64,000 nucleotides of DNA from an uncultured Candidatus Saccharibacteria bacterium (GTDB lineage Bacteria; Patescibacteriota; Minisyncoccia; Phycocordibacterales; Phycocordibacteraceae), in NCBI GenBank assembly GCA_964638585.1, contig CAZXAN010000002.1, positions 9,291 through 73,290 on the forward strand. The letters run 5' to 3'. Below are positions 3,625-57,900 of this stretch, piece after piece. The notes under the pieces were generated by a model. It made no database searches. It saw only the letters and a list, made by a program, of their open reading frames with translations, and was not told the origin of the DNA. Within the stretch, counting starts at the first letter, position 1; every line of letters begins with the position of its first letter. The translations under genes and the position numbers were made by a program.

Positions 3625-3660
3625 AGGTTAGTACTATACACCACGTTAGGGCTGTGTTAA

Positions 3661-3701
3661 GCAACAAAAAGCGCTCGCCAATGGCGAGCGCTTTTTGTTG
3701 C
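3661..3701 (-). terminator. Perfect hairpin GCAACAAAAAGCGCTCGCC-aat-GGCGAGCGCTTTTTGTTGC downstream of csp
   Basis: 19-bp inverted repeat with T/A runs on both sides; acts as rho-independent terminator for minus-strand csp. Confidence 0.6.
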
Positions 3702-3714
3702 TTAGTTTAATTGC

Positions 3715-10226: not shown

Positions 10227-10290
10227 ACACGTCCTCAGAAATGGGGGCTAATAGATTCCGGGATAGCTCAACGGTAGAGCAGCGCCCTGT

Positions 10291-10872
10291 GGTCCATTTC
10301 CTCCCCCCGCCACGGTATATAATGTACCGAATGGCAGACAAGAGGAAATACGCCGACAGGAGAGAAGAACTCATTCGAGCGGTTGCAAAGCGCAGAAGAA
10401 AGATTAAGAGCATGGCGATTGAGTACAAAGGTGGCAAATGCCAAATTTGTGGCTACTCAAAATATCAAGGAGCGTTTGATCTTCACCACATTGATCCGAA
10501 ACAAAAAGACTTTGGTATCGGCGATAAGGGTTACACCCGATCGTGGGAGAGGGTTAAAGCGGAACTCGATAAATGCATCTTGGTTTGTGCGAATTGTCAT
10601 CGCGAGGTTGAGGCCGGCGTTACGCAGCTTCCTAAAGAGATTTAGGTTGAAAAATGAGGTGAATTCGGGGAAACCCTAACAGCGGAAATGCTGTGGGCAA
10701 TCCCGAGCCAAGCCACGACGACAGGCGTTGTGGAAGGTGTAGAGACTATCCCGCAAGGGAGTACCCTTCGAAGCTTTATGCGAAGTAGGGGAAGCGCCTC
10801 ACACCCTCGATCTGCGAAAGCAGGTACGGGTGATGATATAGTCCATCCCTCTAGGTAACTTAAGGAGCGATG
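10291..10872 (+). mobile_element. Group I intron (putative) with internal HNH ORF
   Basis: U at 5' splice site, G at 3' end; GNRA hairpins GGGGAAACCC, CAGCGGAAATGCTG, CCCGCAAGGG; P7-like GACTA/TAGTC in GTAGAGACTAT...GATATAGTCC resembling R/S elements. Confidence 0.55.
10331..10645 (+). CDS. HNH homing-endonuclease-like protein encoded inside the intron
   Basis: CQICGY...LHHIDP...CANCHR HNH/zinc-finger pattern; track ORF 10241 start is an in-frame upstream extension across the tRNA exon. Confidence 0.6.
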   Translation: MADKRKYADRREELIRAVAKRRRKIKSMAIEYKGGKCQICGYSKYQGAFDLHHIDPKQKDFGIGDKGYTRSWERVKAELDKCILVCANCHREVEAGVTQLPKEI

Positions 10873-10910
10873 TAAGGCGTTGGTTGCAAGTTCGAATCTT
10901 GCTCCCGGAG

Positions 10911-10953
10911 CAAATGAAAATGAGAGGCGCCCGTGAGGGCGCTTTTCATTTGC
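10911..10953 (+). terminator. Long hairpin CAAATGAAAA-TGAGAG-GCGCCC-gtga-GGGCGC-TTT-TCATTTG after tRNA-Asn
   Basis: Nested inverted repeats with T-run. Confidence 0.6.
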
Positions 10954-13155: not shown

Positions 13156-13633
13156 GCGACACCTCCTCGCTTCATTATACGCGTACTCTTCTCAAACGCA
13201 CGTTTGATGACTTCGGCTGGACTTTTCGTTTATATAGCATTTCCTTTCGAATTTCTTTCACCCAGCGGAGCAAAATAGAAAACACCTTCCGTCTTGGAAG
13301 GTGTTTTCTATTTATTCTGCAGATTTTTCTTCGTGTGCGATGGCGGCATCCTTATGAGCCTCTCCCGCTACTTGTTCAGCTTCTTTAGCCTGTTCGTCGG
13401 CAGCGTTTGCTATCTCGTCTGCACCTTTTGTGTTTATGTCGTCCATAGTAGAAATATAAATGAATAAAATAGCCCAAACCTAAAGACTACTCTCACTCTG
13501 CATGTGCCGAATAAACGCATGAAATATTACATATAGCTTTTTGTCACTTAGAATAAAGACACCCAGCCACATGCTGTGACTGGGTGCCAGATTAAAAAGA
13601 ACAGAAGTACAAGGCCTAGATTTGTTTTGCGGA

Positions 13634-16524: not shown

Positions 16525-18522
16525 CTAGGATTTCTTGACTCGAATGTACCACTCCACTAAACGCCTGATTTGGCGTTCGGTGTTTCCGTTTTTCTTCATC
16601 CGAGCGACAAAATCCAAATGTTTCCTTTCTGTCTCCGAGTCCTTCTTGGTGTCAAAGGTGAGAACAGGCAGAAGGTCCTCCATAGAACCGAATACCTGAC
16701 TCTCTATAACGTGCCGCAGTTTTTCGTATGAATCCCACCGCGGATTCCTGCCGCCGTTATTTGCTCGATAGCGAAGCACATAATTAAGCACCTCGTTGCG
16801 GAAGTCCTTCGGATTTGCGATGCCCGCAGGCTTCTCAATCTTGGAGAGTTCCGCATCGATCGACTCCTTGTTTAGTAGCTGGCCGGTTTGCTGATCCCTG
16901 AAGTCATTGTTGGCCACCCACGCATCCGCCCAATCGATGTAGCGGTCAAACTTGTTCTGGCCATACTCTTCGAATGACTCCAGGTACGCCGATTGAAGTT
17001 CCTTTTCCAGATGCTCAGCATACTTTGGCAGTAGTTCCCCCTTGATGAACGCGAGAAGCTGTTTCGTTCGCTCAGAAGGGAATTCCTCGCGAAGAATCTG
17101 CTGTTCCAGTACGTACATGAGCTGTACGGGATCAGCAGCGACTTCAACAGTGTCATGGTTGAAGGTAGCGGACAGGACCTTATACGCAAGTCGCGTTGAA
17201 AGTCCAATCATGCCCTCGTCCTGACCTGCCGCATCGCGGTATTCCTGCACCGACTTTGCCTTCGGATCAGTATCCTTGATATCGTCGCCGTTGTAGACGC
17301 GCATCTTGGAATAAAGATCAGAGTTTTCATGCTCCTTGAGCCGAGATAGTACGCAGAACTGCGCCAGCATCTCGAGCGTTCCGGGTGCACACGGCGAACC
17401 GACAAGCTCACTTCCAGAGATCAACTTCTTGTAAATTTGTTGCTCTTCCGAATACCGGAGGCAGTACGGTACCTTGACGATACAGATGCGATCCAGAAAG
17501 GCTTGGTTGTTCTTGTTGCTCTTGAACGCCAGCCACTCTGTCTCGTTGCTGTGTGCAAGGATGATGCCCTGGAAGGGCAACATACCGATGTTATCGGTTC
17601 CCGCATAATTGCTTTCCTGCGTCGCGGTCAAGAGCGGATGAAGCATCTTGATCGGTGCCTTGAACATTTCAACGAACTCAAGAAGCCCCTGATTAGCCCG
17701 ATTAAGCCCGCCGGCGTAGCCGTATGCATCTGCGTCGCTTTGAGAAAATTGATCAAGCTTGCGCAGATCAACCTTCCCGATAAGTGCAGAGACATCCTGA
17801 TTGTTCTCATCTCCGGGCTCCACCTTCGCCACGGCAATCTGCCGTAATTGCGAAGGATACAGCTCCAGAACGGAGAACCTCGTGATGTCATTGTCGAAAT
17901 CTCTGTGGAGGCGATTAAGCGCCCACGGAGACGCGACAGAAACAAGCCTACGTCTCGGGATGTTGTAATTTCTTTCCAGCGTCGCACCATCCCGTTCTGC
18001 GTCGAAGAGCCCGAGAGGGCTTTCGAACAGTGGACTGGCTTCGTACTCTTGTCCGTCGATAGCGAAGAGAGGGCCGGTGATCACATCATTTTTTTCACCC
18101 ATCTTGCGCTTGGCGAGAACATAGATGGGTTCCTTTTCCATCAATGTTTTCAACCGTTCTGCAAGCGATGATTTACCGCCACCGACCGGACCGAGGAGAT
18201 ACAGAACCTGTTTTCGTTCCTCGAGTCCTTGTGCTCCATGTCTGAAGAATGCGACCAAAAATTCAATCGCCTCCTCCATGCCATAGAAGCCTTCAAATGC
18301 CGCATACCGCCGAATAGTCCGGCTCATGAAGATCTTTGCCAGACGCGGATCCTTCTCCTTCGGCGTGTCCACGAGAATGGGCTCACCAATCGCCTTGAGC
18401 ATTCGCTCGTGGGCGTTCGCATAAAAAGCGGGAGACTTCCTGCATCCTTCGAGATATTCTTCCAGCGACATCTTCCTTACCTGCCTGTTACGGTGAAGCT
18501 CTTTCAGTTCCGAAATGCTCAT
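16525..18522 (-). CDS. prkA: PrkA-type serine protein kinase (YeaG)
   Basis: Walker A LLGPVGGGKSSLAERLK, 665 aa PrkA architecture. Confidence 0.85.
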   Translation of the reverse strand: MSISELKELHRNRQVRKMSLEEYLEGCRKSPAFYANAHERMLKAIGEPILVDTPKEKDPRLAKIFMSRTIRRYAAFEGFYGMEEAIEFLVAFFRHGAQGLEERKQVLYLLGPVGGGKSSLAERLKTLMEKEPIYVLAKRKMGEKNDVITGPLFAIDGQEYEASPLFESPLGLFDAERDGATLERNYNIPRRRLVSVASPWALNRLHRDFDNDITRFSVLELYPSQLRQIAVAKVEPGDENNQDVSALIGKVDLRKLDQFSQSDADAYGYAGGLNRANQGLLEFVEMFKAPIKMLHPLLTATQESNYAGTDNIGMLPFQGIILAHSNETEWLAFKSNKNNQAFLDRICIVKVPYCLRYSEEQQIYKKLISGSELVGSPCAPGTLEMLAQFCVLSRLKEHENSDLYSKMRVYNGDDIKDTDPKAKSVQEYRDAAGQDEGMIGLSTRLAYKVLSATFNHDTVEVAADPVQLMYVLEQQILREEFPSERTKQLLAFIKGELLPKYAEHLEKELQSAYLESFEEYGQNKFDRYIDWADAWVANNDFRDQQTGQLLNKESIDAELSKIEKPAGIANPKDFRNEVLNYVLRYRANNGGRNPRWDSYEKLRHVIESQVFGSMEDLLPVLTFDTKKDSETERKHLDFVARMKKNGNTERQIRRLVEWYIRVKKS

Positions 18523-18714: not shown

Positions 18715-18951
18715 ATGTATATAAAAGTATTCGTCACGCCAGATGCGAAGCGGGAGAAGGTTGATGAGGAAGGTGACACCTTACGGATTTCTGTGCGGGA
18801 GCCTGCACTTCAGAACTGCGCGAATACGCGCGTAAGGGAAATCGTTGCGAATCGGCTAGGAGTAGAAGTAGGTAAGGTGCGGATACTGACAGGACATCGC
18901 TCACGGGTTAAGATGATAAGTGTTACTATCAAGCGAACGAGTGAAGAATGA
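18715..18951 (+). CDS. DUF167 (YggU) family small protein
   Basis: MYIKVFVTPDAKREKV...LRISVREPALQNCANT...LTGHRSRVK; start moved to ATG 18715; TATAAT at 18698-18703. Confidence 0.55.
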   Translation: MYIKVFVTPDAKREKVDEEGDTLRISVREPALQNCANTRVREIVANRLGVEVGKVRILTGHRSRVKMISVTIKRTSEE

Positions 18952-19018: not shown

Positions 19019-19381
19019 ATGAACATCACTATCAAGGCGACCAAGTACCGATTAACTCCAGAGACTGAAGCGATTATTCAAAAAAAACTTTCGGCGCCGC
19101 TCCGATTGCTCGGAGAGGATAGTGAGAGAGCGTTATTAGAAATAGATGTTGAAGAAGCGCCACCAGAGGGCAGATCATCAGAGCCCTGTCGTCTTGTCGC
19201 ACGACTCGCCATAGACGGGAAGATGTATCACGCCAAGGCCGTGAAGCCGACGCCAGAGAGCGCGGCAGACAGGGTCAGAAGCGAGTTAGAAGCAGAAATA
19301 CGAAAGGATCGCGGGCGCGAGAAGACGTTTGTGCGTCGTAGCGGCGCGGCGATTAAGAGGATGCTACGTTTTGGTAGTTAG
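19019..19381 (+). CDS. hpf: Ribosome hibernation promoting factor / RaiA family (short form)
   Basis: MNITIKATKYRLTPETEAIIQKKL N-terminus typical of HPF/YfiA; start at ATG 19019. Confidence 0.6.
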   Translation: MNITIKATKYRLTPETEAIIQKKLSAPLRLLGEDSERALLEIDVEEAPPEGRSSEPCRLVARLAIDGKMYHAKAVKPTPESAADRVRSELEAEIRKDRGREKTFVRRSGAAIKRMLRFGS

Positions 19382-20741
19382 ATTCGCGTTTGCCTTCGGG
19401 GATGACGCGTTCAACGATAAATTTTCCGTTTGAGAACGATGCTTTCGTTATTTTCATTCGCTTGCCAGCATCAAAAAAGAAAGTGCCGATAGAGTCGGCG
19501 TAGGCGCGGTATTTATTCCAATTATCACGGCTGTCGCCTTCTAGGTCCAGAAGGCCGTCTTCTTTTTTCAACTTGCGCGCGCGCGTAGCGCGCGCAGGGT
19601 CTTGAGCGACGGGAGTTATTTTACCCTCTAAATATTCTGGAATCGTGACAGTGAGCAAATTCGCTCCCATTTCTATCAATCTCGGCCGCAATTCTCGAGC
19701 CGTTTCTGTATCACCGATCCGAGTCGACTCTTGTGCGATGATATCGCCGGCATCGAGCTCTTTCACCATCTTTTGGATCGTCACTCCGGTCACGTCGTCT
19801 CCGTTTAGGAGAGCCGTCTCGAGTGGCGTGGCTCCGCGATATTTTGGGAGTAGGGAATAGTGCACATTTAATATGCCTTTTGGAAATGCATTGATAAGAT
19901 CTTCGGGCAGAATCTTCCCATATGCGACGCAGACAGCATACTCACAGTTCAGGTGCGCGATTTCTTCTATTGCCATTGTATCGAGCTCGTTGGGTGTAAT
20001 GACGGGAAGTTCGTTTGCTATCGCGAGGAGCTTTGTCTCTGACGGCGTGAGGGCGAGCCCGCGGCCTTTTGGCGCATCGGGCGATGTTACGACGAGTGAT
20101 GGTATAAAGCCATGCTCGATTAAGGTCGCGAGTGTCTCGGAGGCGACCTTCGGCGTGCCGAAGAATACAAAGGGATGCGCGGGGCCGTGCTTTATTCGGA
20201 TAAGCCGGTCGGCGTGGTCTATAAATAAAATGCCGTTTAAGTGATCAATCTCGTGTTCAAATATCTGTGCCATGAGGCCTCCGGCGCCGCGCATGATGTG
20301 TGAGCCATCGGCGCCGCGCGCTTTAATAGTCACGCGCTCGTGGCGATTGGTTGTCCCATAGACACCGTGGACCGACAAGCATCCCTCATCGGCGAGCGCA
20401 CGCTTTCTTGAAGTCTTCACTATCTCGGGATTCACATACACCTCGATCTGTGGCGGCGAGACACCCAAGTCAGACTTGGGTGTCTCGCCGCCAAGTGAAG
20501 TATCTGGAGATATAGGCAAGGTGCGGTCCTTCCTCACAATAAACATCCGCCAAGAAACGCCCACCTGCGGCGCGGCGAGCGCCACCCCTTCGGGGAATTG
20601 GTCAAGCGCCTCGCTCATATCCTCAATTAATTTGGACAGCTCCGCAGACGCGAACATTTCTTCGGGCACAGCCTTCGCTACCTCACGCAGTATCGTATCC
20701 CCATCTTGCACGATTTCTTTCATTGTTGTCCAGTATACCAA
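19353..20741 (-). CDS. def-fmt: Peptide deformylase - methionyl-tRNA formyltransferase fusion protein
   Basis: N-terminal Def motifs EGCLS and HEIDHLNG; after a 4-aa linker, Fmt N-terminus FFGTPKVASETL, middle HYSLLPKYRGATPLETALLNGD, Fmt C-domain; single uninterrupted 462-aa frame. Confidence 0.8.
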   Translation of the reverse strand: MVYWTTMKEIVQDGDTILREVAKAVPEEMFASAELSKLIEDMSEALDQFPEGVALAAPQVGVSWRMFIVRKDRTLPISPDTSLGGETPKSDLGVSPPQIEVYVNPEIVKTSRKRALADEGCLSVHGVYGTTNRHERVTIKARGADGSHIMRGAGGLMAQIFEHEIDHLNGILFIDHADRLIRIKHGPAHPFVFFGTPKVASETLATLIEHGFIPSLVVTSPDAPKGRGLALTPSETKLLAIANELPVITPNELDTMAIEEIAHLNCEYAVCVAYGKILPEDLINAFPKGILNVHYSLLPKYRGATPLETALLNGDDVTGVTIQKMVKELDAGDIIAQESTRIGDTETARELRPRLIEMGANLLTVTIPEYLEGKITPVAQDPARATRARKLKKEDGLLDLEGDSRDNWNKYRAYADSIGTFFFDAGKRMKITKASFSNGKFIVERVIPEGKRESNYQNVASS

Positions 20742-20743
20742 AA

Positions 20744-21028
20744 TTAGTGTTTTGTAGGGTCAAGCTCCCACCAGAAGGTTTTGCTGAAGCTCTTTGCCTG
20801 ACTGCAGACGCTTTTTAAATAATATAAATCTTTTGTCGGGATTTGTTCCAAGACGGTGCCGAGATGCGCCATTGTGATAGGCGCTAGGCCGTCCTGCTTT
20901 CTTGAATAATTTAAATGCCTCTGGAAGAATCGCATCAGCTCGCCCCTCTCCGTCTGCCGCTTTCTCCCCTTGGGCGCCTCCGCCGCTTTCTTTGTTATGT
21001 TCGGGAGCAACTCACCGATTGATTTCAT
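20744..21028 (-). CDS. Hypothetical basic protein between murA and def-fmt
   Basis: 94-aa ORF abutting both neighbours. Confidence 0.3.
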   Translation of the reverse strand: MKSIGELLPNITKKAAEAPKGRKRQTERGELMRFFQRHLNYSRKQDGLAPITMAHLGTVLEQIPTKDLYYLKSVCSQAKSFSKTFWWELDPTKH

Positions 21029-22361: not shown

Positions 22362-23387
22362 ATGTCATTCTTTTCTCCCAAACTCGGAATAGACTTAGGC
22401 ACCACAAACGTACTTGTCTTCGTGCCAGGGAAGGGGGTGGTGATTAATGAGCCGTCGGTGGTGGCGGTGGGGAAGGCGCGCGGATCTCGAGGTAATAATA
22501 AAATTCTCGCCATCGGTGTAGAGGCTAAGAAGATGGTCGGCCGCACACCTGACGACATTATCGCTTATCGACCTATGAAGGACGGAGTGATAGCCGATTA
22601 CAGAGTTACAGAAGCAATGCTTAGGTATTTTATGAAAAAAGCCCTCGGACGTAACCCCTTCAAGCCTACTGTATTAATTTCTGTCCCCGCTGGCGTGACA
22701 TCTACTGAAAAAAGAGCAGTCATAGAAGCTGCGATAAAAGCTGGCGCCAAGAATGCATATGTGGTGAAGGAGCCGATACTTGCCGCGATTGGCGCGGGCA
22801 TCCCCATTCACGAGCCGATGGGGCGAATGGTCGCAGACATCGGCGGTGGGACGATAGACGTGGCAGTGATATCGCTCGGAGGAATCGTTGCTTCCACGAG
22901 CGTGAAGTGCGCGGGCGATCGCTTGGATCATTCCATCATTGACCACGTGAAGAAGACTCACAATCTCGCGATAGGCGAGAAGACCGCTGAAGAATTAAAG
23001 ATTAAAGTTGGCGCTGCTGTGCCGATGAACGAAGAGATCACGATGGCGATAAAGGGGCGCGACCTGATGAGCGGGCTCCCGCGCACGGTAGAGCTTGGCA
23101 CCAACGAGCTCGTGCAGGCAATGTCAAAAGAGTTGCGTGAGATGACGCAGGCTATCCGCAAGGTGCTCCAAGAGACACCGCCAGAGCTCGCCGCCGACAT
23201 CATAGACAACGGCATAATCCTCACAGGTGGCTCCTCCCAACTTCGCCAGATGCCCGAGCTCGTCTACCGCCGTACCGGCGTGGTCGCCAAGCTCGGTCAA
23301 GACCCGTACTTTTGCGTAGCGCGCGGCACGGGCGTGGCGCTGAAGCATCTCCATACCTACCAAAAAAGCATCCTCGCGAAGCAATGA
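22362..23387 (+). CDS. mreB: Rod shape-determining protein MreB (paralog 1)
   Basis: IDLGTTNVLVFV, DIGGGTIDVAVISLGG actin-fold motifs. Confidence 0.85.
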   Translation: MSFFSPKLGIDLGTTNVLVFVPGKGVVINEPSVVAVGKARGSRGNNKILAIGVEAKKMVGRTPDDIIAYRPMKDGVIADYRVTEAMLRYFMKKALGRNPFKPTVLISVPAGVTSTEKRAVIEAAIKAGAKNAYVVKEPILAAIGAGIPIHEPMGRMVADIGGGTIDVAVISLGGIVASTSVKCAGDRLDHSIIDHVKKTHNLAIGEKTAEELKIKVGAAVPMNEEITMAIKGRDLMSGLPRTVELGTNELVQAMSKELREMTQAIRKVLQETPPELAADIIDNGIILTGGSSQLRQMPELVYRRTGVVAKLGQDPYFCVARGTGVALKHLHTYQKSILAKQ

Positions 23388-24067
23388 ACACAACTAGACA
23401 TCATGCGTTTGTTATTGAGGCGGAGGCAGAGGAGGGGATACAGGTAGCGCAGGCGTGGGTGAAAGATAATATCGGGATGGAGGCAAAGGCGAACCCAGAT
23501 ATGATTGTGTTGAGATATGGACTATTCTCGGTTGAGGATGCGCGGCGAGTTTCTGAACTCGCCGCGAGCGCGCCTTTTGATGGCGAAAGTAAGGTGCTAA
23601 TTATTGCCGCGAGTCGCGCTTATCACGAAGCGCAGAATTCGCTCTTGAAACTTTTTGAAGAACCATCCCCAGGCACATACTTGTTTTTAATATTGCCAAG
23701 TTTGGGCGGGCTGTTACCGACACTGCGTTCCCGCGTCCAGATACTCGGTGGAAAGTGGGGACTTACGAAGTCCCCACTTCCGGGCGCGGCGGAGGAGTTT
23801 ATGAAGGCTAGTAAAGAAAAAAGAAGCGTGATGATAAAGAAGATAGCGGCGCACGCTGATGGCGATGCTGTCTCGGCGAGAGAAGAGGCTCTCGCTATCG
23901 TAAACGGCATTGAGGCGGTCGCATACATGTCGGGACGTACGACGTCCCGACATCGAGAATTGCTTGAAGATATACAAGTGCTACGCGGATACCTAAATGA
24001 TCGCTCGGCACCTGTGCGTATGATTCTGGAGCACGTATCAATGATAATTCCCAAAAATTTGCTATAA
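23384..24067 (+). CDS. holB: DNA polymerase III delta'-like subunit (short, no Walker A)
   Basis: LLKLFEEPSPGTYLFLI and LPTLRSR blocks; ATGA overlap with mreB stop. Confidence 0.65.
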   Translation: MNTTRHHAFVIEAEAEEGIQVAQAWVKDNIGMEAKANPDMIVLRYGLFSVEDARRVSELAASAPFDGESKVLIIAASRAYHEAQNSLLKLFEEPSPGTYLFLILPSLGGLLPTLRSRVQILGGKWGLTKSPLPGAAEEFMKASKEKRSVMIKKIAAHADGDAVSAREEALAIVNGIEAVAYMSGRTTSRHRELLEDIQVLRGYLNDRSAPVRMILEHVSMIIPKNLL

Positions 24068-27525: not shown

Positions 27526-28578
27526 ATGAAAAAGTTTTCAAAGAATGCGCTCTTCAGCAGTGATATCGCTATTGACCTCGGTACCACCAACACACTTGTT
27601 TATGTGCGAGGCAGGGGAGTCGTGATTAATGAGCCCTCGGCGGTTGCGATAAATGATAAAACGCATCAGGTAGTCGCAGTTGGCAAAGATGCTAAAACGA
27701 TGCTCGGTAAAACGCCAGGGCATATCCGCGTTGTGCGCCCACTCTCGCACGGCGTCATCTCTGACTTTGAAGTTACAGAAGAGTTGCTCACTTACTTAAT
27801 CAACAAAGCGCAAAATGGCAGAGTGAGACTCTTCGGTCCACGCGTCGTTATCGGCGTGCCGACGGGCGTGACGAACGTGCAGAGCCGTGCGGTGCGCGAC
27901 GCGGCCAAGAACGCAGGAGCTCGCGAAGCGATTATCCTTGAAGAGCCTGTGGCTGGTGCTATAGGCGCGAAACTGCCTGTACACGAAGCAGTCGGGACTA
28001 TGGTGCTAGACATAGGCGGTGGTACTACAGATATTGCCGTGATTTCTCTTAAGGGGGTTGTAGCGAGTAAGTCGTCTCACGTAGCTGGTGACCGATTCAA
28101 CGACAATATTATTGACTTTGTTCGTAGCGAGTTCAAGCTCGGTATCGGCGAGCGCACAGCCGAGGACGTGAAGATTGCGATAGGCGCCGTGATGCCTCTT
28201 ACCGAGGCTCTGTCGCGTACTGTGCGTGGCAGAGACTTTGCAACAGGGCTCCCGCGCGAGATAACTCTCACAGACGCTCACGTCCGTGAAGCGATTGCCC
28301 CCTCTCTTGATGCACTTATGGACGCGATGAAGGAAGTCATTGAAGCGACGCCTCCAGAACTGCTTTCAGACGTTTTACAACACGGCGTAACAGTCTTTGG
28401 TGGTGGGGCACTCTTGCGCGGATTACCGCAGATATTGGCGAAAATGCTCGGAGTGCCGGTGAGAGTCGCACCGGATCCGCTCACCGCAGTGGTGCGTGGC
28501 GCGGGTGTCGTGACAGAAGACCCTGCACCGTACGAAGACTTTTTTGTAGATGAAGAAGACATTCTTAACGAAGCGTAA
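27526..28578 (+). CDS. mreB: Rod shape-determining protein MreB (paralog 2)
   Basis: IDLGTTNTLVYV, DIGGGTTDIAVISL; heads the mreC-mreD-pbp2 cluster. Confidence 0.85.
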   Translation: MKKFSKNALFSSDIAIDLGTTNTLVYVRGRGVVINEPSAVAINDKTHQVVAVGKDAKTMLGKTPGHIRVVRPLSHGVISDFEVTEELLTYLINKAQNGRVRLFGPRVVIGVPTGVTNVQSRAVRDAAKNAGAREAIILEEPVAGAIGAKLPVHEAVGTMVLDIGGGTTDIAVISLKGVVASKSSHVAGDRFNDNIIDFVRSEFKLGIGERTAEDVKIAIGAVMPLTEALSRTVRGRDFATGLPREITLTDAHVREAIAPSLDALMDAMKEVIEATPPELLSDVLQHGVTVFGGGALLRGLPQILAKMLGVPVRVAPDPLTAVVRGAGVVTEDPAPYEDFFVDEEDILNEA

Positions 28579-33352: not shown

Positions 33353-33403
33353 CTGATTACTCACTTGGCGGCGAGACACCCAAGTGGGTGTGCATAACGT
33401 GAG

Positions 33404-37698: not shown

Positions 37699-37733
37699 CC
37701 CGCGGAGAGCTCGCTCTCCGCGGGTTCTTTGTT
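37699..37733 (+). terminator. Hairpin CCCGCGGAGAG-ctcg-CTCTCCGCGGG + TTCTTTGTT
   Basis: 11-bp perfect stem plus T-rich tail; near-identical module at 38233-38275. Confidence 0.6.
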
Positions 37734-42493: not shown

Positions 42494-42557
42494 CAACTTC
42501 AGGTTTTAGCAACGGGAACCCTTGCTCACTCGCGAATGCTAGAGGCATTGTAGTTGT

Positions 42558-42637
42558 GCGGTATAATGGGGGTGTTACCAGTTAATGCGAAAGCTATGCA
42601 TAATCCACACAAGGGAGGGCTCTTTTTCGGGGCGGTT
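42558..42637 (+). repeat. Copy 1 of ~80-bp direct repeat (promoter-like TATAAT + ATG CAT AAT CCA... gene start), upstream of fic
   Basis: GCGGTATAATGGGGGTGTTACCAGTTAATGCGAAAGCTATGCATAATCCACACAAGGGAGGGCTCTTTTTCGGGGCGGT; encodes truncated MHNPHKGGLFFGAV... (21 aa then stop). Confidence 0.6.
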
Positions 42638-43861: not shown

Positions 43862-43904
43862 GACTACCATGGCTCACTTGCGAAGTCTAAAGATTGGTAG
43901 TCGC

Positions 43905-43983
43905 GCGGTATAATAGGGGTGTTACCAAATAACGATAAAGCTATGCATAATCCACACAAGGGAGGGCTCTTTTTCGGGGCGGT
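43905..43983 (+). repeat. Copy 2 of ~80-bp direct repeat; here it is the functional promoter and 5' end of gene 43919-44200
   Basis: GCGGTATAATAGGGGTGTTACCAAATAACGATAAAGCTATGCATAATCCACACAAGGGAGGGCTCTTTTTCGGGGCGGT; about 90 percent identical to copy 1. Confidence 0.6.
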
Positions 43984-48645: not shown

Positions 48646-50376
48646 ATGCGCGCACAGTTCCGCTTTCGTATACGCATTGTATTAATATTTATTGTTCTCA
48701 CGGCACTTCTGATACTCACTCGTTTATATTTTTTACAAATCGTACAAGGCGATGAATATGCTCTAAAGGCGGACAGACAGTTTGCCTCTGGCGGTAATCA
48801 ACTCTTTGACCGAGGGACAATCTACTTCACTCGCAAAGATGGCACTCTTATCTCTGGCGCGGCACTCTCTTCGGGATTTCTTATTGCGATAAATCCGCAA
48901 ACACTTAAAGACCCAGAGAAGGCCTTTTTTGAAATCACATCATTCGCCTCTTCTACAATCAGCCATGACTCTTTTATCACAGCGTCTGGCAAGAAGTCTC
49001 AAGTTTATATTGAAGTCGCACACCGCGTGTCAGAGCAAGCAGGCAAAGCTCTCTCGGCTAAAAAGATTCCTGGCGTGCAAGTTCTTAGAGAACGTTGGCG
49101 ATACTACCCTGGGGGCACTCTTGCCTCGCAATCTATCGGCATAGTCTCTTATGGCTCTAGCTCTGTGCTAGCTGGCCGGACCGGACTAGAGGCAAAATAT
49201 GAGACCACTCTGTCTAGATCTGGCGACTCTCTATATAAAAACTTTTTTGCAGAACTTTTTTCAAATGTCGGTAACATATTTGTAAATGCTAAAGACGCTC
49301 GCGAGGGAGACATAATAACGACGATAGAGCCAGAGGTGCAGACACGCCTCACAGACAACATTGCAAAAGTGAATCGGCGTTATTCAAGCAGTGAGTCGGG
49401 CGGTATTATCATGGACCCGTCTACTGGAGCAATCATTGCTCTAGCAACATACCCTTCGTATGACGGTAATAACTTGCAGAGCATTGATCCAACACTCCTT
49501 GGCAACTCTCTTGTAGAACACGTGTACGAGTTTGGCTCTATCATTAAGCCGATCACTATTACCTCTGCGCTTGATGCCGGAGCAATTACGACAAAGTCTA
49601 CTTACGACGACACGGGCTGTATGAAGGTAGATAAATTTGAGATCTGCAATTGGGACGGCAAGGCGCGCGGTAAGAATACTCCAGTAAAACAAATCATAGT
49701 CCAATCGCTCAACCTCGGTGCCTCTTGGGCTGCGAGAGAGCTGGGTCAGGAGAAGTTCCGTAACTACTTCACCAAACTCTTTGGGCAGGAGACAGGTATT
49801 GACTTACCAAATGAAAATGGTGCACTTATAGGCAACCTGTCAAAGCCACAGCAAGTGGGATATGATACGGCAGCCTTTGGGCAGGGGATAGCGGTGACTC
49901 CTCTACAGATGATCCGCGCCCTGGGGGCTATAGCAAACAGCGGTGTTATGGTAGAACCGCATTTGGCTAGTGGAGTGCGCCTTAACTCTGGCATAGTGCG
50001 CGATATAGAATGGGAGGAGAAGACGCCTGTATTCTCTCCAGAATCAACTAGAGCTACGACAGAGATGATGGACGCGTTTACAGAGACTCTTGTTGGCGGT
50101 AAGGAGGTGTCTCGTACAATGTCTGTAGCATCAAAGACCGGTACCTCTCAACTCACGCATCCAGACGGCGGATATTATACTGACCGTTTCTTCCACTCAT
50201 TTGTAGGGTTCTTTCCGTCTTATAATCCGCGTTTCATCATCTTGCTTTATACAAACGACCCAAAGAATGTCTCGTTTGCCTCTGAGACTTTGAGTCCTAC
50301 ATTTTTTGATATAGTTCGATTCTTGATAAATTATTATGAAGTGCCTCCAGATCGCGGTCTATCATCAACACAATGA
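48646..50376 (+). CDS. ftsI: Penicillin-binding protein, FtsI-like transpeptidase
   Basis: SIIKPI (SxxK), KTGTSQ, N-terminal TM; dcw-cluster position. Confidence 0.8.
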   Translation: MRAQFRFRIRIVLIFIVLTALLILTRLYFLQIVQGDEYALKADRQFASGGNQLFDRGTIYFTRKDGTLISGAALSSGFLIAINPQTLKDPEKAFFEITSFASSTISHDSFITASGKKSQVYIEVAHRVSEQAGKALSAKKIPGVQVLRERWRYYPGGTLASQSIGIVSYGSSSVLAGRTGLEAKYETTLSRSGDSLYKNFFAELFSNVGNIFVNAKDAREGDIITTIEPEVQTRLTDNIAKVNRRYSSSESGGIIMDPSTGAIIALATYPSYDGNNLQSIDPTLLGNSLVEHVYEFGSIIKPITITSALDAGAITTKSTYDDTGCMKVDKFEICNWDGKARGKNTPVKQIIVQSLNLGASWAARELGQEKFRNYFTKLFGQETGIDLPNENGALIGNLSKPQQVGYDTAAFGQGIAVTPLQMIRALGAIANSGVMVEPHLASGVRLNSGIVRDIEWEEKTPVFSPESTRATTEMMDAFTETLVGGKEVSRTMSVASKTGTSQLTHPDGGYYTDRFFHSFVGFFPSYNPRFIILLYTNDPKNVSFASETLSPTFFDIVRFLINYYEVPPDRGLSSTQ

Positions 50377-51647
50377 AAAAAATAATAAAATCTGTTGTCA
50401 TACGTATGCTCGCAGTCTTTGCGCGAGCGGTTGTGCGCAGGTACTCTCCAAAAATAGTTATGGTAACCGGCTCGGTCGGCAAGACGTCTACTAAAGATGC
50501 TGTCGCCTCTGCCTTAGCGTCGCGCTTTTTTGTACGCAAGAGCGATAAGAGCTTTAATAGTGAATTCGGTGTCCCATTTACTGTACTTGGTGTAAAAAAT
50601 CCAGAGAGAAATGTGTTTGCGTGGCTATCTGTAATTAAGAACGCGATATCCCTCTTGGTCTTGCCTAACCATTATCCAAATATGCTCGTGCTAGAAGTTG
50701 GGTCTGGCAAGCCCGGCGACTTGGAACAGATATTGAAGATTGCTACGCCTGAAATGGTTATTGTAACTAGATTGCCAGAGATATCTGTGCACGTAGAGGC
50801 ATATTCCTCGCCAGAGGCAGTGAGAGAAGAAGAGTTCTCTCCGGCATATGCGCTACCAGCCTCGTCGCCACTTATCATACCTGCAGATGACTCATACGCG
50901 CGAGATATGTCTATAGGCACGCCTGCGAGAGTGAGTTCTTATGGCATGAGTGAGGGTGCGACAGTGCGCGTGAGTGATGTCGGATTTTATGAGAACGAGG
51001 GCAAGGTTGCAGGTATGCAGGCAAACATCACTGTAGGCGGAGAAAATGCGATGGTTGTAGTGAAAGGTTCAGTAGGTGTGACGCAGATCTTACCTGTCGC
51101 GGCCGCTGTGGCGGCCGCGACGGCCTTTGATATATCTCTCTCTGATGCGCTCAAGGCGCTTGATAGCTACGAGCCACCGCCAGGTCGTGGACGCCTCTTG
51201 GTCGGCAAGAACGGCTCTGTGATTATTGATGATTCTTACAACTCATCTCCTGTGGCGGTAGAAGAAGCTCTTGCAACACTTAAGAATTTTCCTCATGCAA
51301 AAAGACGTATAGCCGTACTTGGCGATATGCTTGAGCTAGGACGCTACTCTGTAACAGAGCATGGACGCGTCGGGAGTATAGCGTGCAAGTCTGCTGATGT
51401 GATTGCCACGGTAGGTATCCGCGCACGTGCGTTTATTACAGCAGACTGTAAGGTAGAAGTTATAAATTTTGACAGTGCAAAGTCTGCGGCAAAAGCGCTC
51501 CCAGACATTGTTCGCGAAGGGGATGTGATCTTGGTAAAAGGCTCGCAGTCTATGCGCACCGAACGCGTAGCAAAAGCTCTCCTATTCAATCCTGCCGACT
51601 CCTCTCTACTAGCTCGTCAAGACCGCGCGTGGCTCGGGCGTCTGTAG
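50373..51647 (+). CDS. murF: Mur ligase, most likely UDP-MurNAc-tripeptide--D-Ala-D-Ala ligase MurF
   Basis: VMVTGSVGKTSTKD P-loop, IIDDSYNSSP, C-terminal ILVKGSQSMRTERV. Confidence 0.6.
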   Translation: MKKIIKSVVIRMLAVFARAVVRRYSPKIVMVTGSVGKTSTKDAVASALASRFFVRKSDKSFNSEFGVPFTVLGVKNPERNVFAWLSVIKNAISLLVLPNHYPNMLVLEVGSGKPGDLEQILKIATPEMVIVTRLPEISVHVEAYSSPEAVREEEFSPAYALPASSPLIIPADDSYARDMSIGTPARVSSYGMSEGATVRVSDVGFYENEGKVAGMQANITVGGENAMVVVKGSVGVTQILPVAAAVAAATAFDISLSDALKALDSYEPPPGRGRLLVGKNGSVIIDDSYNSSPVAVEEALATLKNFPHAKRRIAVLGDMLELGRYSVTEHGRVGSIACKSADVIATVGIRARAFITADCKVEVINFDSAKSAAKALPDIVREGDVILVKGSQSMRTERVAKALLFNPADSSLLARQDRAWLGRL

Positions 51648-53143: not shown

Positions 53144-54202
53144 ATGGATATCTTCACTGTCGCACTAATTGTTCTAGGATTGATTCTAGTGCAGGGCATT
53201 GGTCTATACTTTATATTCCGGCGCCGCGAAGCGACGCCGGCAGAAGATGGGGCAGGGATGGTTCTCCTCCAGCAACAACTACAGAATCTGGAAAAAACTC
53301 TTGATGCAAGAGTTTCAGAGTCTTCAAAAGCGATGCAGGAAAATTCGCACAGGCAGTTTTCAGAGTCTGCGCGTCTAATAAAAGAGATTACGCAAGAAGT
53401 AACGAGTGTGAAAGAGATTGGTCGACAGACCCAGGGCTTCGCCGAACAGTTACAGTCTCTACAAGATTTGCTTAAGAACCCTAAGCAGAGAGGTATTCTC
53501 GGCGAATATTATTTAGAGACTGTCTTGAAAAATGTAATGTCGCCCGAAGATTATCAGATCCAGTATCCATTTAAGAATGGTGAGATAGTAGACGCAGTTA
53601 TTTTCATAAATAAAAAGATAGTGCCCGTAGATTCTAAATTCTCACTCGATAATTACAACAGGTTTGTGAGCACGCAGATAGGGAGCGCAGAGAGGGCTGT
53701 GGCAGAGAAGGCGTTTGTGAATGATCTTAAAATGCGTATCCAAGAAACCGCGAAATATATCCGGCCTGAAGAGAACACGATGGACTTTGCTTTTATGTTT
53801 ATCCCTTCAGAAGGCATTTATTATGATCTTCTTACCAATCAGGTTGGCGCTGGAGAAGATGAAAATCTTATACAAAGAGCAGCAGGGAAGTGGAAGGTGA
53901 TAATAGTATCGCCGACATCTTTTCTCGCATATCTACAAACAGTCATGCAGGGGCTTAAAGCTTTGAAAATAGAAGAAAAAGCAGTAGAGATACAGCAGAG
54001 GGTAGGGGAGCTGGGGAAGCATGTACAGGCCTATGAGACTTTCTACAAGAAGCTGGGCGTCTCGCTCGGCACTTCTATCTCGCACTACAACGCGGGCTAT
54101 AAAGAATTGGGTAAAATAGACAAAGACGTGTATAGAATCTCCGAGTCTAAAATAGGTATTGAGCCCGAATTATTGGACAAGCCGCTAGCATCTGAAGCAT
54201 GA
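53144..54202 (+). CDS. rmuC: DNA recombination protein RmuC family
   Basis: N-terminal TM, long coiled coil, C-terminal FAFMFIPSEGIYYDL block. Confidence 0.6.
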   Translation: MDIFTVALIVLGLILVQGIGLYFIFRRREATPAEDGAGMVLLQQQLQNLEKTLDARVSESSKAMQENSHRQFSESARLIKEITQEVTSVKEIGRQTQGFAEQLQSLQDLLKNPKQRGILGEYYLETVLKNVMSPEDYQIQYPFKNGEIVDAVIFINKKIVPVDSKFSLDNYNRFVSTQIGSAERAVAEKAFVNDLKMRIQETAKYIRPEENTMDFAFMFIPSEGIYYDLLTNQVGAGEDENLIQRAAGKWKVIIVSPTSFLAYLQTVMQGLKALKIEEKAVEIQQRVGELGKHVQAYETFYKKLGVSLGTSISHYNAGYKELGKIDKDVYRISESKIGIEPELLDKPLASEA

Positions 54203-55035: not shown

Positions 55036-55156
55036 GGCTACAAAGAGCTCGGCAAGATAGATAAAGACGTATATAGAATCTCCGAGTCCAAAATCGGTTC
55101 CGCCAGCTGGCGGAGAACCGGAGTTGCTTGATAAGCCCACAACAGAACTTGAATAG
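55036..55156 (+). repeat. Copy 2 of rmuC 3'-terminal segment (degenerate), containing a 16-bp perfect palindrome TCCGCCAGCTGGCGGA at 55099-55114
   Basis: GGCTACAAAGAGCTCGGCAAGATAGATAAAGACGTATATAGAATCTCCGAGTCCAAAATCGG... about 85 percent identical to 54093-54160 of rmuC. Confidence 0.6.
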
Positions 55157-55488: not shown

Positions 55489-55746
55489 ATGGCTCGCATC
55501 GTACTCACGCCGCCTGCCGAACGAGAGTACAAGCGCTTGCCGAGAGACGTGCAACAAATGGTTCAGGAGTTGTTTGATGGTCACTTTCGAATCGATCCAC
55601 TTGCTATTCAATTTAGAGCTAGGAAAGTGCAGGTACCTTTCACTGGGTATCGCCTGCGACTGAGAGACTACCGTGTACTTTTTGAATTCGAAGGAGAAGT
55701 TATTCTCGTGTATCGAATCAGACATCGCAAAGATTCATATAAATAG
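55489..55746 (+). CDS. RelE/ParE-family toxin
   Basis: 85 aa; ...YRLRLRDYRVLFEFEGEVILVYRIRHRKDSYK typical RelE/ParE C-terminus; 12-bp gap after antitoxin. Confidence 0.65.
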   Translation: MARIVLTPPAEREYKRLPRDVQQMVQELFDGHFRIDPLAIQFRARKVQVPFTGYRLRLRDYRVLFEFEGEVILVYRIRHRKDSYK

Positions 55747-55826
55747 ACAAAGACGTGTATAGAATTTCCGGCTCCAAAATCGACATCGAACCAGAATTGT
55801 TGGACAAACCAGCGACAGGGGAGTAA
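55741..55826 (+). repeat. Copy 3 of rmuC 3'-terminal segment
   Basis: AAATAGACAAAGACGTGTATAGAATTTCCGGCTCCAAAATCGACATCGAACCAGAATTGTTGGACAAACCAGCGACAGGGGAGTAA; encodes IDKDVYRISGSKIDIEPELLDKP... like RmuC C-terminus. Confidence 0.6.
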
Positions 55827-57860: not shown

Positions 57861-57897
57861 CGTAAGGTGTCACCTTGCTACAAGGTGACACCTTACG
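57861..57897. terminator. 16-bp perfect inverted repeat CGTAAGGTGTCACCTT-gctac-AAGGTGACACCTTACG between convergent helicase and recR
   Basis: Each arm is itself the AAGGTG-N-CACCTT palindrome seen at 44205 and 44703. Confidence 0.55.
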
Positions 57898-57900
57898 GAA

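Follow-up and report, generated by a model that had tools for sequence, protein, structure and literature searches.

The question raised by the 64-kb stretch of DNA presented above (64,000 nucleotides, nt; hereafter the window) is whether peptide deformylase (Def) and methionyl-tRNA formyltransferase (Fmt) are encoded here as one protein, or whether two genes have merely been joined by an error in the sequence. Both enzymes can be read from a single open reading frame (ORF) on the minus strand, and the first-pass annotation of the window had called this frame an in-frame Def-Fmt fusion. The call is borne out, as both halves pass their family models and the catalytic residues are conserved. We consider it very probable that the locus is a genuine bifunctional def-fmt gene, giving one polypeptide of 456 amino acids (aa) and born of a frame merge in overlapping genes.

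The reading frame and its two enzyme halves

The ORF listing of the window gives the frame as 19353..20741, i.e. 462 aa from a TTG codon without interruption. This was the protein of the first-pass annotation; the frame is indeed uninterrupted from the TTG, but the protein is likely 456 aa long, with the ATG at 20723 as the true start. This codon is preferred because an identical 456-aa protein (P0001) is present in the database and all homologues align from that methionine. In Pfam (positions in the 462-aa numbering), residues 7–180 match PF01327 Pep_deformylase (E = 1.3e-40, 138.9 bits, cutoff 22.8) and residues 194–364 match PF00551 Formyl_trans_N (E = 3.7e-37, 128.2 bits). Two of the three profiles by which the domains were to be checked are confirmed in this way, while the third, PF02911, falls under its cutoff (see below). 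Among the NCBIfam models, the deformylase models TIGR00079 (113 bits, cutoff 103.95) and NF001159 (129.5 bits, cutoff 125) are passed, as is TIGR00460 (fmt) on the C-terminal part with 213 bits, above the cutoff of 201.5. The ArnA, PurN and PurU models score far under their cutoffs. Sequence matches in the PDB comprise peptide deformylases over residues ~5–183 and Fmt over ~190–440, and a solved chain covering both halves was found neither by sequence nor by structure (Foldseek) search of the PDB. No second def or fmt copy was detected by tblastn in the window; the sole extra match is a palindrome in the Def coding region (see below) read on the other strand.

By homology, the N-terminal 180 residues would form a metal-dependent peptide deformylase with Cys115, His157 and His161 as ligands and Gln53 and Glu158 as catalytic residues. 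For the C-terminal 276 residues, a methionyl-tRNA(fMet) formyltransferase is predicted whose catalytic triad would be Asn286/His288/Asp324 and whose own C-terminal domain is shortened. When 61 fused proteins (45 close homologues and 15 at 31–42% identity) are aligned, the Def residues Q53, E113, G114, C115, H157, E158 and H161 prove invariant down to 31% identity, and the Fmt residues N286, H288, D324, L292 and P293 are invariant in the same set. At the level of the 20 fused genes found in related species genomes (see below), all seven motif tests were passed in 20/20 or 19/20 cases, the Def motifs in 20/20. The complete Def motif set and the Fmt motifs reported earlier for the window are present as well, with EGCLS, HEIDH and NVHYSLLP confirmed at the nucleotide level. 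Moreover, the Fmt insertion loop SPDAPKGRG, of the PDxPxGRG type, aligns without gaps to solved Fmt structures, and the motif occurs in 19 of the 20 fused genes. In E. coli Fmt this loop contacts the acceptor end of the initiator tRNA.

The AlphaFold2 (AF2) model of the fusion depicts two confident domains and a short hinge, with a mean predicted local distance difference test score (pLDDT) of 90.7 and a predicted template modelling score (pTM) of 0.62. Only two stretches are of low confidence (pLDDT < 50): residues 74–88, a loop insert, and residues 179–181, the HGP hinge. The hinge is preceded by a Def strand (172–176) and followed by the first Fmt strand (185–188). The linker of roughly four residues proposed in the first-pass annotation is thus about right, and a hinge of ~3–8 residues would link the two halves. 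The peptide spanning the junction is IKHGPAHPFVFFGTPK, and the corresponding tryptic peptide is HGPAHPFVFFGTPK. Foldseek pairs the Def half with human mitochondrial PDF (3g5k, TMt 0.81) and the Fmt half with the solved Fmt structures 4iqf, 5uai and 2fmt (TMt 0.81–0.83). Neither the pTM nor the hinge of the AF2 model gives evidence of a fixed interface between the halves. From the model, Def and Fmt are most likely independently acting enzymes, present at 1:1 stoichiometry on one chain. An in-frame ATG, GTG or TTG near the junction is absent from the window gene and from most fused genes; hence the Fmt of the window gene should be made only within the fusion, unless the protein is cleaved.

The C-terminal barrel domain of Fmt, which binds tRNA and was also part of the first-pass annotation, is present in a reduced form. 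E. coli Fmt carries a full C-terminal barrel of ~100 residues. The domain of the window protein is ~35 residues shorter than that of the Exiguobacterium fusion protein discussed below, with three strands and one helix in the AF2 model, and the TIGR00460 alignment covers profile positions 4–252 of 315. When the two sequences are read side by side, KITKASFSNGKF followed directly by IVERVIPEGKRE lines up with KLFFGSKTTG, ~25 aa and KVVDLQPSGKKRM of the Exiguobacterium protein, which suggests an internal deletion. The short C-terminal domain is likewise found in unfused relatives (e.g. P0121, 288 aa) and is therefore characteristic of the clade rather than caused by the fusion. In summary, the fusion protein is most likely composed of an ordinary Def and an ordinary, C-terminally minimised Fmt.

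Distribution among relatives and origin of the fusion

Fused homologues in at least 120 clusters came up in a protein search; their identity is 65–76%, and all are 437–490 aa long and have PF01327 and PF00551. Their sources are metagenome-assembled genomes (MAGs) of Kaiserbacteria, Paceibacterota or Parcubacteria, and the proteins are named there either ‘methionyl-tRNA formyltransferase’ or ‘peptide deformylase’. Related genomes were then surveyed for the same fusion with one genome per species, as had been recommended; 102 related loci were found, 80 of these were compared, and frame-aware tblastn was used to divide the loci into fused and unfused. Among 79 related species genomes (Kaiserbacteria/Paceibacterota), 20 were fused and 59 unfused. 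Nineteen of the fused loci (L001–L019) are single-frame fusions of 447–468 aa and one (L020) is cut off by the contig end, whereas in L021–L079 (L066 partial) the Def and Fmt parts lie in different frames. The fused species genomes have the in-frame junction at 64–72% protein identity and differ in its sequence and length. The statement that def and fmt are normally adjacent but separate genes therefore holds in this family, as the 59 relatives with the same neighbourhood have separate, mostly overlapping genes. The description of the fusion as uncommon holds in a relative sense: approximately 25% of the related species found carry it, the architecture occurs in at least 41 different clusters at 50% identity, and it has been published for Exiguobacterium (see below).

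Fused and unfused loci have their surroundings in common. HolB (the delta' subunit of DNA polymerase III) and MreB are found on one strand, and MurA, a 94-aa ORF, def and fmt on the opposite strand, with convergent HPF-like and DUF167 genes downstream. On the basis of this shared neighbourhood the fused and unfused loci are orthologous. The 94-aa ORF between murA and def (20744–21028, minus strand) has no Pfam match; almost all of the 80 related loci have it at this position, with 63–90% identity, and it is probably co-transcribed with def-fmt.

The unfused loci indicate how the frames were merged. Of the 58 complete ones, 40 have the start codon of fmt (ATG) 14 nt ahead of the stop of def, and the two genes, fmt being in the +1 frame, overlap by 17 nt; the others have overlaps of 4–23 nt or small gaps. 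The unfused Def ends in HLNGILFIDHAEHLIxIxHAxxA-stop and the unfused Fmt begins with MxQPHKFxYFGTP. The fused proteins read HLNGILFIDHAEHLIRIPHGSxHxFxYFGTP, i.e. they follow the Def frame up to His-Gly and the Fmt frame from His-x-Phe. In the unfused locus L053, for example, the def frame is CAC CAT GCC GCA ACC GCA TAA and the fmt frame C ATG CCG CAA CCG CAT AAG TTT, and in the fused locus L001 the sequence is CCG CAT GGG CTG GCG CAC TCG TTC. The two histidine codons of the junction are spaced by 13 nt in unfused and 12 nt in fused genes. Nucleotide alignments of L027 with L011 and L009, of L053 with L002, and of L037 with the window each stay in register apart from one gap of 1 nt at the former ATG, and the old def TAA is out of frame once shifted. 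A net loss of one nucleotide within the 17-nt overlap would have brought def into the frame of fmt and left the old def stop unread, so that the fusion is proposed to have arisen within the Kaiserbacteria family from two overlapping genes. The overlap geometry argues against fission, i.e. against the unfused genes being derived from fused ones. The change was presumably near-neutral, with a covalent link in place of translational coupling.

One fused locus departs from this pattern. In L018 (2852–4204) def no longer has a stop of its own and the ATG of fmt has stayed in frame; the junction reads GHAMSHTPKHEFAFFGTP and contains a 9-bp inverted repeat (GTGGGACATgctATGTCCCAC). L018 is also placed elsewhere in the tree, and judged by its junction sequence it is a further, independent def-fmt fusion in the same family. 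The HG(S/x)xH junction pattern of the other loci is suggestive of one main fusion event and at least one more. A single origin of all fusions in the family was also considered; it was recovered neither by neighbour-joining (NJ) nor by Fitch parsimony, and the junction signatures set L018 apart.

Three other explanations were weighed against a bifunctional gene born of a frame merge. As 59 of the 79 relatives have two genes that are one nucleotide of register away from the fused arrangement, a 1-nt assembly or sequencing error in a MAG could mimic the fusion. Such an artefact is nevertheless exceedingly improbable: 19 complete and one contig-cut species genomes from independent studies carry in-frame junctions that have diverged, the fusion occurs in at least 120 protein clusters drawn from several sources, codons at the junction have come to differ in the fused frame (e.g. 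the HG(S/P)xH pattern), and the window junction is not a homopolymer run. Recurrence in independent, diverged genomes rules it out. It is also conceivable that the ORF is fused but that no bifunctional protein is used, either because one half is inactive or because Fmt is released as a separate protein by internal initiation or proteolysis. The sub-threshold C-terminal domain of Fmt, the in-frame ATG kept at the junction in two fused relatives (L008 and L018) and the predicted flexibility of the hinge are compatible with this. We regard it as very unlikely, since the 61 fused proteins agree in every catalytic residue of either half, in-frame start codons are missing near the junction of the window gene and of most other fused genes, the short C-terminal domain is shared with unfused relatives, and the Exiguobacterium fusion provides both activities in vivo.

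The remaining alternative concerns selection. The tether could have been favoured as an adaptation that couples the cycle of formylation and deformylation, e.g. by holding Fmt at the ribosome, or that averts a toxic imbalance in a reduced genome. Repeated origin is in keeping with this, with at least two events in the family (L018 versus the rest), others in Exiguobacterium and Fermentithermobacillaceae, and at least 41 clusters whose linkers vary widely, as is the persistence of the fusion across diverged species. Conversely, three quarters of the close relatives thrive with separate genes, translational coupling through the overlap existed before the fusion and leaves a small stoichiometric gain, and the two enzymes meet their substrates at different places and times (initiator tRNA once charged, and nascent chains). 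The pTM of the model gives no sign of a fixed interdomain interface, and recurrence is to be expected anyway for adjacent, co-oriented and overlapping genes. An adaptive origin is thus rated as unlikely, although coupling of formylation and deformylation by the fusion is a possibility. The simplest view is that the frames of two genes, already translationally coupled, were merged by a near-neutral change.

Some observations weigh against this account of a bifunctional gene with a single main origin and should be set beside it. The match of residues 390–440 to PF02911 reaches only 19.3 bits (cutoff 21.1) and covers profile positions 1–51 of 100. The activity of each half is ascribed by conservation and by analogy to a precedent of 34% identity. 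In E. coli, Def has a free C-terminal helix that docks on the ribosome, and an appendage of 276 residues at this position could alter the docking. As for the history of the fusion, the gene tree of Def and Fmt is star-like, the fused set is monophyletic in 0/200 NJ bootstraps, and Fitch parsimony on this tree demands 3–10 state changes; it is the common junction signature, and not the tree, that would argue for a single origin of the main fused group.

Palindromic units and other features of the window

The coding region of Def includes a perfect inverted repeat composed of two copies of a short unit (Table 1), and this embedded palindrome may be more surprising than the fusion itself. It encodes LGGETPKSDLGVSPP, the loop on the protein surface between motifs 1 and 2 of Def, which is disordered and of low confidence in the AF2 model. 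A 25-nt exact copy of one arm is found at 33361–33385, in the spacer just after the lysS stop, and the 64-kb window holds three units of the CTTGGCGGCGAGACACCCAAG type in total. All Kaiserbacteria Defs have a hypervariable, proline-rich insert of 20–45 residues between motifs 1 and 2, whereas the outgroup loci L071 and L079 are without it; in the window, the palindrome is what codes for this insert. Near-perfect palindromes with arms of 16–28 nt occur at the Def loop of relatives, where L007 (arm 22), L023 (arm 28), L025 (arm 26, perfect) and L036 contain doublets with unit variants of their own. Copies of the exact unit of the window were not found in the 80 Kaiserbacteria loci. Short palindromic in-frame insertions were also observed at the def/fmt junction (L008, L018) and at the Fmt N-terminus (L050, L023, L039), and the loop peptides QGSTL..NSQGxTL, SGASGELPAE.EVLAP and HRDESGKLSTP recur without following the gene tree.

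Outside the family, an exact 20-mer of the unit is present in 30 metagenome loci (L081–L110; e.g. L082, L088, L089, L092, L094, L103 and L106). It is placed in frame in unrelated long ORFs (read as LGGETPK, LGVSPPS or in other frames), as intergenic singlets and as inverted doublets, the latter in L101, L102 and L110. All six frames of CTTGGCGGCGAGACACCCAAG are free of stops. In the metagenome loci, unit copies flank an ORF of ~221 aa, and twice sit inside it; this ORF is an IS200-like Y1 transposase (PF01797, 31.9 bits, cutoff 23) with HUH and tyrosine motifs. No IS200-like transposase was found in the window or in L001–L080.

Perfect palindromes are frequent in the window as a whole. Counted with an arm of ≥11 nt and a loop of ≤6, there are nine, five of them inside ORFs, versus ~0.2 expected from shuffles. 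Of the three within the delta' gene, two lie in hypervariable, indel-rich loops at which the homologues show recurring hairpin-type motifs (G[LF]TKS, SDVG..TS). The first (23541–23566) was rejected as an insertion, as the sequence it sits in is conserved. Another family of hairpins (AAGGTGACACCTT) is represented at 18770, 44699 and 57861–57900.

Judged by sequence and placement, the units look like a family of the REP/RAYT type (repetitive extragenic palindromes and their associated tyrosine transposases) in organisms resembling those of the candidate phyla radiation (CPR). They share with REP elements the short, multi-copy hairpin units, which appear as singlets or inverted doublets and flank an IS200-like Y1 transposase gene. 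With Rickettsia palindromic elements (RPEs) they share the in-frame position within protein-coding genes at surface loops, and they look like miniature versions of these that tolerate or prefer in-frame insertion at such loops; RPEs are 100–150 nt long, compared to the ~21–23 nt of the unit. Unlike both systems, the units around the transposase gene are all in the same orientation, with two inside its ORF. A literature search for REP/RAYT in Patescibacteria and for in-frame palindromic elements in CPR, incomplete in its coverage and thus weak evidence of absence, gave nothing relevant. Whether selfish in-frame hairpin elements reside in the genes of Kaiserbacteria (CPR), essential ones included, and make the hypervariable disordered loops of Def and delta' is in our view an evenly balanced proposition. 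If the units are mobile, they would be a miniature analogue of RPEs in a new phylum.

Table 1 Coordinates of the def-fmt gene, its parts and the palindromes of the window
Feature	Position	Strand	Details and basis
def-fmt fusion coding sequence	19353..20723	-	456 aa + stop (likely start); ORF; identical P0001; homologue alignment
Peptide deformylase part, aa 1–180 (by homology)	20184..20723	-	PF01327, TIGR00079, NF001159; invariant residues; Foldseek 3g5k
Def motif 1 GVALAAPQ, aa 46–53	20565–20588	-	Read from sequence
Def motif 2 EGCLS, aa 113–117	20373–20387	-	Nucleotide-level check
Def motif 3 HEIDH, aa 157–161	20241–20255	-	Nucleotide-level check
Junction IKHG/PAHP, aa 177–184	20172..20195	-	1-nt gap vs unfused relatives; former 17-nt def/fmt overlap, now one frame
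Fmt N-terminal catalytic (formyltransferase) domain, aa 185–365 (by homology)	19629..20171	-	PF00551, TIGR00460; invariant residues; Foldseek
NVHYSLLP motif of Fmt	19845–19868	-	Nucleotide-level check
Asp324 codon of Fmt	19752–19754	-	Invariant in 61 fused proteins
Shortened Fmt C-terminal domain, aa ~384–456	19356..19574	-	Partial PF02911; AF2: three strands + one helix
Palindrome in Def coding region	20451–20493	.	Perfect 21-bp inverted repeat, 1-nt loop (43 bp); doublet of ~21–23-nt unit CTTGGCGGCGAGACACCCAAG
Palindromes in DNA polymerase III delta' ORF 23312..24067	23541–23566, 23753–23779, 23927–23953
Palindrome in ORF 50373..51647	51096–51121
Intergenic palindromes	3658–3704, 13273–13313, 37699–37724, 57861–57897

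Several further features of the window are recorded here. A tRNA-Asn(GUU) gene (10257–10912, plus strand) contains a group I intron of 582 nt (10291–10872) that splits the anticodon (CTGT^TAA) and matches Rfam RF00028 with 62 bits at 10600–10865. The 5′ part of the intron holds an HNH endonuclease ORF within 10241..10645 (PF01844, 22.1 bits). ARAGORN missed this tRNA in the window and called the in-silico spliced 74-mer as tRNA-Asn(gtt). A literature search on group I introns in tRNA-Asn returned nothing relevant, which at its incomplete coverage is weak evidence of absence. Two MreB-like paralogues, at 22362–23387 (PF06723, 3.6e-126) and 27526–28578, lie 5 kb apart and share an 83-nt stretch of 76% identity, and a PrkA-type AAA protein kinase is encoded at 16525–18522; the MreB pair and the kinase are somewhat unexpected for a CPR-type genome. 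An 87-nt direct repeat (91% identical, 42550–42636 and 43897–43983) is located just upstream of the ORFs 42662.. and 44272.. and may represent a duplicated promoter/leader or a small RNA. A 70-nt repeat is present in three copies (54114–54183, 55055–55124 and 55741–55810).

Comparison with known fusions and operons

The Kaiserbacteria fusion does not overturn the current understanding of the two enzymes; it illustrates an evolutionary process neatly and does not constitute a new system. The family holds both the ancestral state, with genes overlapping by 17 nt, and the derived fused state, and so offers an exceptionally clear case from nature of two genes fusing through a frame merge of one nucleotide. 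There are practical consequences, too. Because fused proteins carry the label of one enzyme, gene-presence surveys of CPR can wrongly score def or fmt as missing. Furthermore, the family provides natural constructs with a minimal Fmt C-terminal domain and almost no linker, beside the one tested Exiguobacterium case, with which to ask whether Def can tolerate so large an extension of its C-terminus where it works at the exit of the ribosome.

Fusion of Def and Fmt recurs independently in distant bacteria. In a HMMER search of 1.84 billion cluster representatives, at least 41 Def-Fmt fusions (distinct clusters at 50% identity) with 34–44% identity are among the best 150 matches listed, and their linkers range from none to ~60 residues. 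A further fusion is found in Fermentithermobacillaceae (P0230/P0297). The architecture is therefore recurrent and already documented, and the Kaiserbacteria case is a new instance of it that arose independently; a literature search found no paper on a Def-Fmt fusion in CPR or Kaiserbacteria, though its coverage was incomplete and this is weak evidence of absence.

The closest precedent is the def-fmt fusion in four Exiguobacterium reference genomes, which complements an E. coli Δdef-fmt strain (PMC12690207, Mol Biol Evol 2025) and by this complementation establishes that the architecture is compatible with both activities. The protein (P0159, WP_021067074.1, 461 aa; ‘Multifunctional fusion protein’ in UniRef) shares with that of the window the order of an N-terminal Def and a C-terminal Fmt, the position of the junction right after the C-terminal strand of Def, a short linker and all catalytic motifs. 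It differs in that it is only 34% identical, belongs to the phylum Bacillota, has no loop inserted between the first two Def motifs and retains a full-length Fmt C-terminal domain. As the unfused, overlapping ancestor state persists in the family of the window (59/79 genomes), the two fusions are independent in origin, with architecture in common but not lineage.

The separate def and fmt genes of Kaiserbacteria/Paceibacterota (e.g. L023, L053 and L037) are nearer still, being at the orthologous locus with the same neighbours and 57–73% identity, and with the same Def loop insertion and short Fmt C-terminal domain. They differ by forming two ORFs in different frames, off by one nucleotide of register relative to the fused gene. 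With the canonical def-fmt operon of E. coli and most bacteria (Meinnel & Blanquet 1993; Mazel et al. 1994, both as cited in PMC12690207), the window gene has the two enzymes, the gene order and co-transcription in common, and it departs from the operon in that the latter yields two polypeptides.

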